Shown here piece after piece: positions 7,226 to 57,907 of a stretch of 64,000 nucleotides of DNA. Positions within the stretch are counted from its first letter, which is position 1. Each line of letters begins with the position of its first letter. The translations under genes and the position numbers were made by a program. Origin of the DNA: Bdellovibrionales bacterium (GTDB taxonomy: Bacteria > Bdellovibrionota > Bdellovibrionia > Bdellovibrionales > UBA1609); assembly GCA_965199825.1 (NCBI GenBank), contig OZ241329.1, positions 896,001-960,000 on the forward strand, written 5' to 3'. The notes below the pieces were generated by a model, which saw nothing but the letters and a program-made list of their open reading frames with translations, made no database searches and had not been told where the DNA came from.

Positions 7226-7873
7226 ATGACACAAAAATCTGAGCTTGCAAGAGCAATCGATCACACGAATTTAAAACCTCTAAGCGGTGTTGAAGATATC
7301 AACCTCCTGGTGCGCGAGGCGCTTCAGTTGGGAGTGTTTTCGGTCTGTGTGGCTTCGCGCTATGTGGAGCAATGTGCTGCGGCTTTGCGTGGCAGCGACA
7401 CCTGCGTGTGCGCGGTGGTGGGATTTCCGCTGGGCCATCAAAGTTCTGAAATCAAAGCCTTTGAAACCGAGTGGTGTGTGGGGAAAGGTGCGACCGAAAT
7501 TGATATGGTTTTGGATCTTGCCGCAATTAAAGGGCGTGCTGTTTCGCTGATCGAGAAAGATATTTCGGCAGTGGTGCGCGCAGCGCGCGGGCATGTTGTG
7601 AAAGTGATTATTGAAACTTGTTTGCTGACTGATGATGAAAAATGTTTTGTGGTTCCATTGATCGAAAAATGTGGTGCGCAGTTTGTTAAAACTTCTACCG
7701 GATTTTCTGATCACGGCGCTGTGTTGGAAGATGTGCGTTTGTTTAAATCTTTGAGGCCTTCGCTTTTGATTAAGGCCAGTGGCGGTATTCGCGAGCGTTC
7801 GGTGGCGCTTGATTTTATTGCGGCGGGTGCGAGTCGGATTGGGACTTCGAATGCGGTGGGGATTTTGGGTTGA
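7226..7873 (+). CDS. deoC: Deoxyribose-phosphate aldolase
   Basis: IDHTNLK, VGFPLG, EIDMV, KVIIET, FVKTSTGF, KASGGIR, RIGTS. Confidence 0.97.
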   Translation: MTQKSELARAIDHTNLKPLSGVEDINLLVREALQLGVFSVCVASRYVEQCAAALRGSDTCVCAVVGFPLGHQSSEIKAFETEWCVGKGATEIDMVLDLAAIKGRAVSLIEKDISAVVRAARGHVVKVIIETCLLTDDEKCFVVPLIEKCGAQFVKTSTGFSDHGAVLEDVRLFKSLRPSLLIKASGGIRERSVALDFIAAGASRIGTSNAVGILG

Positions 7874-7882
7874 GGGTTGGGT

Positions 7883-8055
7883 TTGTCGTGCCCGCTTTGT
7901 TTTTGGGATTGTTCATTGCTTGAGTGGTTTTGGTTCTGGGATTCATATCTGTTCGGTGGGATTGTGGTGCCCGTTTTTTGTTTTTGGGATTGCTCGTTGC
8001 TTGAGTGGTTTTGGTTCTGGGATAATATCTGTGCGGTGGGATTGTCGTGCCCGCT
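7883..8055. repeat. Imperfect tandem duplication, 79-80 bp unit, about 2.2 copies, G/T-rich
   Basis: Units start at 7883, 7962 and 8042, each with TTGT(C/G)GTGCCCG; units 1 and 2 share TTGCTTGAGTGGTTTTGGTTCTGGGAT. Confidence 0.92.
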
Positions 8056-8298
8056 GAGTCGGGCGTGCTTTCTCTGCATTTTATTTTCAATTTTCGTTGA
8101 CACATTTTGTTGCAGCTTTAGTTGGCCTACATTTGAATTTTACGAGGCAAAACATTTTTTCTTCTGCGCTGAACATTGCAAATGAATTGTAGAGACAAAG
8201 ACTAAGCAAACAGTGGCGTTGAGCACTCCATCTGACACGCCTTAAAAACTGGTTTTTGAAAAGCCATGATACACTTCTATCATAAACAGGAGATATTT

Positions 8299-9123
8299 AT
8301 GGATCATTCAAAAATTCATTTTAATGCGGTGACCGCCGCCGCAGCTCATCGCAAAACCGAAATGGAATTGCTCAATGCTTTGGAACTCGTTTGGAAAAAT
8401 AAAACCTTTTCGCAGTATGGCTGTCGTTCAATGTTTGAATACTCAACTAAGGAACTGAAGCTGTCCGAGGAGATGGCGAGTATCGCAAATAAAATCGCAA
8501 AAAAATTTACCGAACTTCCCGAACTTAAATTAAAAATGGAATCGGAGGAGCTGTCCCTTTCAAAAGTGAATCGCATCACCGCAGTCGTTAACAAAGAAAA
8601 TGTCGATCACTGGGTCAATGTGGCCAAAGGGACTAAACGCCATCTCGAAAAAGAGATTGCAAAGGTCCAACCCGAAAAAGTCATTCCTGAGCGGGCACGA
8701 TATCAAAAGGCGGGTGATACGTTGAGAGTCGTGATTTCATATTCAATGACCCAGGAAGAATTTGCGATGCTTGAACGAACACAAGATCTCTTAAGTCAAA
8801 AATTGAAACGCCCGGCTTCAATCGCTGATGTTCATCTGGCGGCACTTAAGGAGCTTCATCAAAAGCTTGACCCATTAGAAAAACCGATTCGCCAAAAATC
8901 TGCGGGCACGATAAAGTTAACCATTAATCTTAAGCGAAAAGTCCATCACAAATTCAATAGTCAATGCAGTCATGTCGATGAGAAAGGCGAACGATGTGCT
9001 CAACGTCGCCACCTTGATATCCATCACATTATTCCACAATCAAAAGGTGGCACCCATGAGGAAGACAACCTTACGATATTATGCGCTGGCCATCATCGTG
9101 CCCACCATCGAAAAGTACACTAA
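8299..9123 (+). CDS. HNH endonuclease with DUF222-like helical N-terminal region; probable selfish or mobile insertion
   Basis: C-terminal CSH..RC...LDIHHIIPQSKGG...NLTILCAGHH; N-terminal GCRSMFEY..ELKLSE..A..P.L....LSLSK; AGGAG RBS before ATG 8299; interrupts deoC-deoA. Confidence 0.85.
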   Translation: MDHSKIHFNAVTAAAAHRKTEMELLNALELVWKNKTFSQYGCRSMFEYSTKELKLSEEMASIANKIAKKFTELPELKLKMESEELSLSKVNRITAVVNKENVDHWVNVAKGTKRHLEKEIAKVQPEKVIPERARYQKAGDTLRVVISYSMTQEEFAMLERTQDLLSQKLKRPASIADVHLAALKELHQKLDPLEKPIRQKSAGTIKLTINLKRKVHHKFNSQCSHVDEKGERCAQRRHLDIHHIIPQSKGGTHEEDNLTILCAGHHRAHHRKVH

Positions 9124-9195
9124 GAACACCCGTTAACTCTGAAACAAATCCCAAAACAACTTGAATCTTTCAAAAGACCCACACAAAATCAGCCC

Positions 9196-10500
9196 ATGTA
9201 TCTTGCAACCGAACTCATTCGCAAAAAACGCACGGGTCAGGAGCTGACGCTTCATGAGCTTCAATGGATGATAGGTGCCTATCTCGCCAACGAAGTTAAA
9301 GATTATCAAATCTCGGCATGGCTCATGGCGGTTTGCCTTAAAGGGATGACTCCTCAAGAAACTGTTTACCTCACTCAAGTGATGCGCGACAGTGGTGAGG
9401 TTTTCGACCTCCAATATTTAAACAAATATTGCGTCGACAAACATTCGACCGGTGGCATTGGCGACAAGACAAGCATGATCATTGCTCCGCTTGCGGCCGC
9501 GGCGGGACTGGCAGTCCCCATGGTTGCGGGCCGTGGACTTGGGCACACCGGGGGGACACTTGATAAGCTCGAAAGTATTCCACATTTTTCGACAAGCATT
9601 TCGCCCGAAAAATTTCGCTCGACGCTCGAGTCACTTGGATTTGCTATCGTTGGGCAAACTCCAGAAATGTGTCCGGCGGATAAAAAACTTTATGCCTTAA
9701 GAGATGTGACCAGCACCGTCGATTCAATTCCGCTCATTTGTGCGAGCATCATGTCGAAAAAATTGGCGGAGGGTTTGAACGGATTAGTTCTTGATGTGAA
9801 GTTTGGCAGCGGAGCTTTTATGAAGGATCTTAACTCGGCCCAAACTCTTGCAAGATCTCTGATTGAGATCGGGAATGGTTCGAACGTAAAAACAAAGGCC
9901 CTTCTTACCAATATGAACCAACCTCTCGGTCATAAAATTGGCAATGCTCTCGAGATACAAGAATGTGTGGACATTATGAATAACAAAAAATGCTTGATTG
10001 ACGGTGTCGATTTTTATGCCGACACGCGAGAGCTCAGTCTTGAGCTTTGCGCACATATGCTTCATCTTTCAAAGCCTCAAATTAATTTCGAAGACTGCAA
10101 ACGAGAGGTCACAGAGCTTTTAGAATCCGGAGCGGCATTAAAAAAATTCAACCAGCTTTGCGATGTCCAAGGACAGGGTTATCCTGAAAAATTTGAAATG
10201 CCGTATGCGCCCTACCCGCTGGTTGCAACCAAAGACGGCGTGATCGAAGGTATGGATGTGGAACAAATAGGAATTGCCGCAATTGAAATCGGTGTGGGTC
10301 GCAAAACGGTAGATGGTAAGATTGATTATTGGGCGGGGTTTGAAATGAATGTTAAAGTTGGAAGCCCAATCAAAAAAGGCCAAACCCTTTTAAATATTTT
10401 TGCCAAAAATCCACAAACAATAGAAAAGCAATTGCTCAACGCCATTACGATTGGGACTTCGGCAAAACCGTCACCTTTGATTGCCGAGGTGATGCAATGA
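9196..10500 (+). CDS. deoA: Thymidine/pyrimidine-nucleoside phosphorylase
   Basis: DKHSTGGIGDK, GRGLGHTGGTLDKLESIP, LYALRDVT, SIMSKK, LDVKFGSGAFM. Confidence 0.93.
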   Translation: MYLATELIRKKRTGQELTLHELQWMIGAYLANEVKDYQISAWLMAVCLKGMTPQETVYLTQVMRDSGEVFDLQYLNKYCVDKHSTGGIGDKTSMIIAPLAAAAGLAVPMVAGRGLGHTGGTLDKLESIPHFSTSISPEKFRSTLESLGFAIVGQTPEMCPADKKLYALRDVTSTVDSIPLICASIMSKKLAEGLNGLVLDVKFGSGAFMKDLNSAQTLARSLIEIGNGSNVKTKALLTNMNQPLGHKIGNALEIQECVDIMNNKKCLIDGVDFYADTRELSLELCAHMLHLSKPQINFEDCKREVTELLESGAALKKFNQLCDVQGQGYPEKFEMPYAPYPLVATKDGVIEGMDVEQIGIAAIEIGVGRKTVDGKIDYWAGFEMNVKVGSPIKKGQTLLNIFAKNPQTIEKQLLNAITIGTSAKPSPLIAEVMQ

Positions 10501-57711: not shown

Positions 57712-57907
57712 AGCGGGCACGACATTCAGAGCGGGCACGACATTCAGAGCGGGCACGACATTCAGAGCGGGCACGACATTCAGAGCGGGCACGACATTCA
57801 GAGCGGGCACGACATTCAGAGCGGGCACGACATTCAGAGCGGGCACGACATTCAGAGCGGGCACGACATTCAGAGCGGGCACGACATTCAGAGCGGGCAC
57901 GACATTC
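57712..57907 (+). repeat. Perfect 18-bp tandem array (AGCGGGCACGACATTCAG) x10.9
   Basis: 10 identical units plus 16/18 of an 11th; no spacers. Confidence 0.97.

Follow-up and report, generated by a model that had tools for sequence, protein, structure and literature searches.

The window is a 64,000-nucleotide stretch of contig OZ241329.1 (positions 896,001–960,000; assembly GCA_965199825.1) from a Bdellovibrionales bacterium. It contains a gene for a predicted HNH endonuclease, which is located between the host genes deoC and pdp (Table 1; positions without a prefix are those of the window). The HNH gene has 29 matches in the 2.84-Mb genome, corresponding to about 27 loci, and each copy is preceded by between one and about 25 direct repeats of a motif whose consensus is RTCGTGCCCRC (core RTCGTGCCC). 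About ten further arrays of the motif have no HNH gene. The distal array at the window locus is an ~80-bp tandem duplication (7886–7965 and 7966–8045), each unit of which opens with a motif copy that is intact at 7887 and decayed at 7965–7974. The DNA flanking this array, and others throughout the genome, is enriched in G and T on the strand whose 3′ end faces the array, and the enrichment continues into silent positions of host genes.

Table 1 Features of the HNH locus and of a second motif array in the window
Feature	Position	Strand	Remarks
deoC, deoxyribose-phosphate aldolase	7226..7873	+	TIGR00126 E 6e-66; host gene
Run of 26 codons ending in G or T	7793..7870	+	mean fraction of codons ending in G or T (G/T3) in homologs 0.45 there
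G/T-rich non-coding flank and distal array	7874..8045	+	families D1, D2
Proximal motif CGTGCCCGC and inverted, G-T-wobbled partial copy (8059-8067)	8046..8067	+	terminator-like hairpin
HNH leader	8068..8298	+	TTGACA 8097, TACACT 8270, AGGAG 8288; near-fixed layout in paralogs
HNH endonuclease gene, 274 residues	8299..9123	+	PF01844 E 1e-7; between deoC and pdp
Tract identical to paralog G000:C1:875591-876415	8587..9107	+	521 nucleotides
Motif copy inside HNH coding sequence, codons 131-134	8691..8699	-	synonymous positions conserved
Second internal motif copy	8902..8910	-	in about half of paralogs
Terminal motif ATCGTGCCC	9095..9103	+	codons 266-268 read CAT CGT GCC
A/C-rich downstream flank (minus strand G/T-rich)	9124..9195	+	A31 C23 G6 T12
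pdp, pyrimidine-nucleoside phosphorylase	9196..10500	+	host gene, no codon footprint at 5′ end
HNH-free array, 11 x 18-bp units with the same motif	57713..57901	-	one of about ten such arrays

The last 26 sense codons of deoC all end in G or T, which is the longest such run among the 844,499 codons of 2,550 called genes; the runner-up has 22 codons. After the ATG, 10 of the first 26 codons end in G or T, and the segment 7874–7920 has 2 A in 47 nucleotides. These counts, together with that of the downstream flank (54 A or C and 6 G among the 72 nucleotides of 9124–9195), had been made by hand in an initial annotation and are all correct. After correction for codon identity and replichore, the synonymous G/T excess of deoC ranks first among 2,131 genes (z 5.3), and the most extreme 40-codon window of the genome falls in the same gene, 13 nucleotides from the array (z 5.6). 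The codon z values are nominal, with a standard deviation of 1.11 for windows and overdispersed values for genes (standard deviation 1.4). The excess spans most of deoC and climbs towards its 3′ end (rho 0.27, p 8e-5): G/T3 in successive segments is 0.41, 0.81, 0.44, 0.78, 0.70, 0.67, 0.74, and 1.00, compared to 0.45–0.52 in 42 homologs. In 29 distant homologs, 7–15 of the last 26 aligned codons end in G or T (three alignments stop near residue 198); the lack of an HNH gene beside these homologs is judged solely from their motif counts of zero or one. Similar runs are thus not common elsewhere in the genome, nor are HNH-free homologs equally biased. The longest run of codons ending in A or C also has 26 codons; it is situated in a tail rich in Pro, Thr, and Ala, 1.6 kb downstream of a different HNH paralog. 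This run, within G000:C1:828560–830400 (L031), gives way immediately to the G/T-rich codons that open the next gene, with no element at the switch.

The best deoC matches reach 48% among 40 relatives and 52% identity among 54 metagenome loci, and because a close ortholog is absent from the sequences searched, the substitutions in deoC are not ordered in time. Assembly error as the origin of the run is ruled out by contigs of the runs X1 (possibly the source sample) and X2, which have no differing letters across deoC and the array. Run X3 overlaps deoC only at 7493–7711, with two listed differences there; a low-depth contig of this run (depth 4.8) has six differing places and one insertion relative to 9124–9140, and 14 listed differences in 9287–9598. 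At the amino-acid level, the shift of deoC is slight and inside the range of its homologs. At 14 well-conserved positions the protein differs from the consensus of its homologs (L15N and P44S are two of them), and given these departures its activity may be relaxed. The window lies to the left of the GC-skew minimum (C1:972,316), with the plus strand as the lagging strand. The C/A lean of this strand, which had been raised as a caveat, is small, and because the strand is lagging the background opposes the upstream G/T bias. The reported flip to A and C downstream of the HNH gene is confirmed; however, the A/C block does not enter the codons of pdp (z −0.7).

The flanks of 53 elements were surveyed across the genome: HNH loci, genes of a Y1/RAYT-like HUH family (Y1-type), HNH-free arrays, and one composite. 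Genes were called with an in-house open reading frame caller, and a few false reading frames inside arrays were removed for the host-gene and flank statistics. Measurements were made on the 95 of 106 flanks with at least 40 non-coding nucleotides. On the strand whose 3′ end faces the element, G+T exceeds 0.5 in 79 of the 95 flanks (40 of 45 at HNH loci, 22 of 31 at Y1-type genes, 15 of 17 at HNH-free arrays, and 2 at the composite). It is at least 0.65 in 20 flanks and at or below 0.35 in none, whereas 5 of 548 control gap halves reach 0.65. Generic intergenic polarity was rejected, with values of 0.49–0.52 in control gaps. Among the 68 most skewed non-coding 80-nucleotide windows, 48 are within 700 nucleotides of an element (22.9% expected); 33 of these lie outside the elements and have the sign described, three are reversed, and 12 are inside. 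Each of the nine non-coding windows with the strongest skew in the genome borders an element and has this sign. At 14 HNH-free clusters, G+T is 0.56 in the 5′ flank and 0.40 in the 3′ flank, and 13 of the 14 follow that direction. Because HNH-free arrays and Y1/RAYT-like genes share the mirror bias, the skew is centred on the motif array and not on the HNH gene. With distance from the outer edge of an array (47 edges), G+T declines per 20 nucleotides through 66, 65, 62, 61, and 57% to 50% over ~180 nucleotides. The reach is about 100–180 nucleotides, mostly ~150, and deoC is an outlier. The bias initially described around the HNH gene is local, strand-polar, and mutation-like, as claimed, and recurs in other host genes within 100 nucleotides, but it is centred on the array and has this shorter reach.

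The sign of the skew is independent of fork direction and of the orientation of neighbouring genes, with G+T of 0.55–0.58 on the left and 0.43–0.47 on the right in every class. A skew of the replication or transcription strand was rejected, since the sign follows neither fork direction nor gene orientation, and the same independence excludes fork stalling and host transcription as determinants of the sign. A related explanation requires no cutting: protein-bound arrays would stall forks or RNA polymerase, or heavy transcription would unwind the flanks, and the exposed strand would deaminate. The limitation of the footprint to clustered motifs is in keeping with this, and the single rRNA operon (G000:C1 around 1,755,700) has a mild halo of ~2 kb, with G+T of 0.44–0.50 on the left and 0.56–0.60 on the right. 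However, that halo has the opposite sign, and elements are affected on both flanks whichever replichore they lie in and whether the adjacent host genes diverge or converge. At 30 tRNA/tmRNA clusters there is neither a G excess nor host-codon polarity (z −0.1), and heavy transcription of the kind found at tRNA genes was also rejected as a cause. An origin without cutting is highly unlikely.

Synonymous sites within 100 nucleotides of HNH elements, with deoC left out, are shifted by +0.12 (n 105, z 2.7) and +0.11 (n 255, z 3.6). The non-coding shift at the same distance, +0.11 and +0.08, is of the same size, and a permutation against 510 control gaps with deoC included gave p 0.004. Generic codon bias at 3′ ends was rejected, with G/T3 of 0.510 observed and 0.510 expected in 2,243 motif-free genes. 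Alternatively, the G/T flanks could have come with the element or arisen by repeat expansion, and the deoC run could be an extreme of codon usage with no connection to them. Several G/T blocks contain micro-duplications, and the equally long A/C run and the overdispersed gene-level z values point the same way. However, unrelated host genes share the sign even without deoC, gene ends in general have no G/T3 excess, and the top codon window of the genome adjoins an array; this explanation is barely credible and already largely refuted.

The standing composition of the 95 flanks changes with G+T with slopes of −0.63 for A, +0.64 for G, −0.37 for C, and +0.36 for T, whereas in ordinary intergenic DNA A covaries with T and C with G. 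The purine slope is 0.01 (−0.12 to 0.13) and the GC slope 0.27 (0.09 to 0.43), compared to −0.18 and 0 for a transversion-only model; the purine balance is 0.50 throughout the range of the skew. Because purine content is flat and GC content rises, as transitions predict and the transversion-only model does not, the composition supports A>G and C>T changes on the strand whose 3′ end faces the element. The polar C>T and A>G footprint of the initial annotation thus fits the composition, but the differences between pairs of repeat units are less clean. The two decayed motif copies cited as examples stand at the positions given for them; all five of their changes go to G or T, but only three are C>T or A>G. 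The decayed copy at 8059–8067 doubles as an arm of the terminator-like hairpin. Replication-linked skew and the G/T skew of the mitochondrial heavy strand arise from C>T and A>G changes on exposed single strands, and thus share the two transitions and their restriction to one strand. Those skews are genome-wide and follow the fork, whereas the skew described here is local, mirror-symmetric, and fork-independent.

Selection could also shape the flanks if G/T-rich 3′ tails were better RecA substrates or Chi-like, or if an unstructured A/C strand helped to stop element transcripts. The preference of RecA for TGG repeats (PMC3763553, in the portion drawn on here) would agree with this, as would the sharp block edges at some host genes and the polarised transversions between repeat units. 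Transition-dominated change is also possible by selection on a transition-rich supply of mutations. However, synonymous and non-coding sites shift equally within 100 nucleotides of elements, the purine balance is constant over the range of the skew, and neither TGG nor GTG ranks with the most enriched trinucleotides. The A/C strand is poor in U, unlike typical Rho sites, and selection would need a separate advantage at each of dozens of silent sites. Selection is quite unlikely to have produced the skew.

The HNH protein matches PF01844 with 32.1 bits (cut-off 21.4) and consists of a helical N-terminal half, a predicted β-hairpin/helix-helix segment, and a C-terminal zinc-finger HNH domain. 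The HNH catalytic residues H242, H243, N257, and H266, as well as C223 and C233, are invariant in all 20 HNH sequences compared. The structure model (predicted local distance difference test 82.7, predicted template modelling score 0.45) has no Foldseek match in the PDB at E 0.001 or better, and a Pfam scan to E 0.1 returned HNH-type families only and no GIY-YIG domain. Identity as IscB/HEARO was rejected: NF040563 scores 38.6 bits against a cut-off of 175, covering the HNH part only, and no Rfam guide RNA was found in 7800–9250, where the Rfam scan gave no match near a gathering score and nothing credible. The nearest Atlas clusters are mostly from Bdellovibrionota, and distant family members occur in 20 of the 40 relatives. 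The paralog counts omit the fragment C1:1029896, and the 24-gene alignment omits three broken or partial copies. Defective copies at G000:C1:840598–841266, 1247917–1248723, 798436–799110, and 1029896–1030120 display an in-frame internal deletion, an internal stop, a missing HNH domain, and fragmentation among their defects. In the leaders of all paralogs, TTGAC and CCATG(A/T)TACACT are separated by ~170 nucleotides, a spacing that hardly varies (8097–8275 in the window). T-tracts occupy the left part of this stretch and A-tracts the right, and its sequence turns over rapidly. This segment may be a site of bent or wrapped DNA, or an RNA.

The sequence CGTGCCCG is present upstream of 26 of the 27 HNH loci, and a looser pattern is found at all 27. 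The motif is non-palindromic and its arrays are mostly direct, with one inverted pair at 8046–8067; its 13-mer form occurs 104 times in the genome and at most once in each of the 40 relatives. At the terminal motif, codons 266–268 of the HNH gene are shared by 24, 24, and 23 of 24 paralogs, respectively, in a set whose median synonymous difference is 0.49. Since the motif inside the coding sequence is fixed at synonymous sites, it is the DNA sequence itself that is kept. No clear local polarity of G/T3 per 10 codons was found at the internal motifs. RTCGTGCCCRC is the predicted target of this uncharacterised family of 274-residue nucleases. The leader is 78% identical to that of the closest paralog (22% difference), and the first 288 nucleotides of the gene have 28 differences (~10%); the identical tract then follows, crosses the internal motifs, and ends just past the terminal one. 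An X1 contig of about double depth covers 8524–9107. The tract is likely the product of recent gene conversion at an older locus. Near-perfect tandem arrays with units of 18–25 bp, at 57713–57901 in the window and at G000:C1:1202451–1202909, 2565511–2565863, and 808644–809770, suggest recent expansion by slippage or by cutting and reannealing.

The Y1/RAYT-like HUH family, with 17 matches in the genome, is unrelated to the HNH family, and many of its copies have their own direct repeat. PF01797 (Y1_Tnp) matches both of the copies scanned (2 of 17) with 29.8 and 22.9 bits (cut-off 23). The family is below the NCBIfam cut-offs for RAYT and IS200; NF047646 scores at most 21.7 bits against a cut-off of 80, and the repeats are direct, unlike the palindromic REPs in inverted pairs that mark RAYT systems. 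Copies at L157 (G000:C1:1597300–1600900) and L156 (G000:C1:2714000–2716800) have direct GGGCARTGTCA repeats upstream and flanks with up to 86% G+T across hundreds of bases; the neighbouring host genes lean in the opposite direction. At G000:C1:246171–247515, the repeats upstream of a Y1/RAYT-like gene enclose a 16-copy array of the HNH motif.

The skew very probably stems from some form of local mutational bias. The more specific reading favoured here, to which we give an even chance, is that the skew is a scar of repeated cutting, exposure of 3′ tails, and C>T and A>G damage. The encoded nuclease would cut clustered motifs repeatedly and on both strands, and short 5′-to-3′ resection would turn the array-facing strand into a single-stranded 3′ tail. 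The C and A residues of this tail would deaminate, and the resulting C>T and A>G changes would become fixed once the partner strand is rebuilt. Rebuilding would also erase the C>T damage of the partner strand itself, which would account for a rise in G that matches the rise in T. An equal scar would arise by the same route at those Y1/RAYT-like HUH genes that have their own repeat. The deoC gene is probably extreme because it adjoins an old array whose HNH gene was refreshed by conversion. An AddAB-like PD-(D/E)XK gene pair is present, and endonuclease V was not found in the genome.

The same two transitions and a short patch are also predicted by wobble errors: a 3′ end at a nick or break would be chewed back and re-extended by ~100 nucleotides, and G-T wobbles (dG opposite T and dT opposite G in the new strand) that escape mismatch repair would yield A>G and C>T. 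The A>G component is no weaker than C>T, the genome encodes a DinB-type polymerase, and wobble errors in long repair synthesis would give a reversed outer sign. Composition cannot separate such errors from deamination. However, both strands would have to be degraded 3′-to-5′, whereas the ends produced by AddAB-type processing have 3′ tails. Wobble errors are an unlikely source of the skew.

Several observations weigh against a scar of cutting and deamination in its simple form. Gene by gene the signal is weak, with z above 0 in 10 of 14 genes whose 3′ end is within 60 nucleotides of an element (mean 0.8), and distance does not predict host z over the 106 flanks (rho −0.12, p 0.23). Beyond 100–200 nucleotides the sign is weakly reversed; at HNH elements the shift at 100–1500 nucleotides is −0.017, and none of 3,000 draws was as low. 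Of 75 outlier codon windows, 14 are within 1.5 kb of an element (5.3% expected), and most have the reverse sign. Some G/T blocks at Y1 loci are 400 nucleotides long with 68–86% G+T, peak far from the repeat, and stop sharply at the host stop codon. The simple model leaves the outer reversal and these blocks unexplained. Differences between repeat units are polarised to the same degree for transversions (29:15) and transitions (58:37, both from noisy alignments), and the GC interval touches 0.09, the value for a half-and-half mixture, so that a partly mixed spectrum is compatible with the composition. The genome also encodes two uracil-DNA glycosylases. Isolated motif copies far from elements have no footprint (22 copies of a 10-mer, p 0.18); either the clustering of motifs matters, or events at isolated motifs are purged inside genes. 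The signal is also weak in relatives, for which 40 HNH loci in five genomes were considered and the gene located at 35 in four genomes, with crude reading-frame calls and no control. Their pooled non-coding flanks have a G/T fraction of 0.52 (0.523 upstream, 22 of 32 above 0.5; 0.524 downstream, 18 of 29), and the pattern is patchy, with a signal at some loci of G040 and G015 and none in G036 and G034 (about 0.50). In G015, at L144 and other loci, a related HNH family has the same leader layout, with the hairpin-type repeats CATCCATGGATG and GCAGGATGC in place of the motif. The end of the upstream host gene at L144 is 56–68% G+T.

A fuller model is offered tentatively, at somewhat less than an even chance. 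An undescribed HNH element of Bdellovibrionota would target its own 9–13-nucleotide motif, breed arrays by cut-and-repair duplication, convert its paralogs, and write a mirror scar of two zones: G/T-rich towards the cut within ~150 nucleotides, from exposed 3′ tails, and of reverse sign to ~1.5 kb, from repair synthesis. HUH elements would write the same scar.

Comparisons with known systems draw on parts of the cited papers. Human meiotic breaks made by PRDM9 and SPO11 are accompanied by strand-asymmetric C>N and A>N changes in resected flanks, with single-stranded DNA and re-synthesis given as their source (Hinch et al. 2023, PMC7615360). Like the array flanks, those breaks have motif-centred, strand-asymmetric changes and more than one footprint zone. 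They concern the human germline, extend ~2 kb per side, are known from measured mutation rates, and are symmetric in the central 100 bp (PMC7615360), whereas the skew described here is bacterial, covers ~150 nucleotides (a tenth of that range), is seen in standing composition, and is strongest beside the motif, with the break predicted. Our reading of the text and the Fig. 1 legend of that study would assign its affected strand to the 3′ tail. The Ssn nucleases with NTS repeats (SRM) are site-specific GIY-YIG nucleases of single-stranded DNA, and a lower identity of genes adjoining the repeats is cited for them (Chenal et al. 2025, PMC11893778). They likewise comprise a small nuclease gene flanked by repeats that are also clustered elsewhere. 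However, they have a single domain and hairpin repeats, and strand skew is not mentioned in the sections consulted (PMC11893778); the present elements combine an HNH domain with a large N-terminal portion, exist in ~27 gene copies, and have a non-palindromic motif of 9–13 nucleotides that forms direct arrays and also recurs within the coding sequence. RAYT/TnpA-REP systems with REP, REPIN, and BIME arrays (10.1101/279083; PMC3116915; PMC2817692) also combine a nuclease gene with stand-alone repeat arrays. By contrast, the Y1 family here has its 17 matches in one genome and direct, non-palindromic GGGCARTGTCA repeats, and the HNH family has an unrelated fold. Free-standing HNH homing endonucleases of phages (PMC10448857) are similarly selfish HNH genes spread and homogenised by cutting and conversion, but the present family has many intact presumed targets, including those inside its own gene, and not a disrupted site. 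A literature search that left subscription papers mostly outside and did not cover supplements gave no earlier description of this HNH family or of a comparable skew next to nuclease-repeat elements in bacteria. The array skew is real, genome-wide, and tied to nuclease-associated repeats, and is best described as a variant of break-associated strand-asymmetric mutagenesis in which the cutting is predicted.

If this reading is true, the array flanks would be a bacterial counterpart of hotspot mutagenesis, in which selfish nucleases rewrite the silent sites of housekeeping genes, up to 26 codons running. Bacterial chromosomes would then hold a fossil map of the cut sites of selfish nucleases, and the skew would be a cheap read-out of repeatedly opened DNA in uncultured genomes. 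Mirror skew could locate active nucleases and their target motifs from sequence alone. Local codon bias or skew near repeats need not reflect selection or replication.

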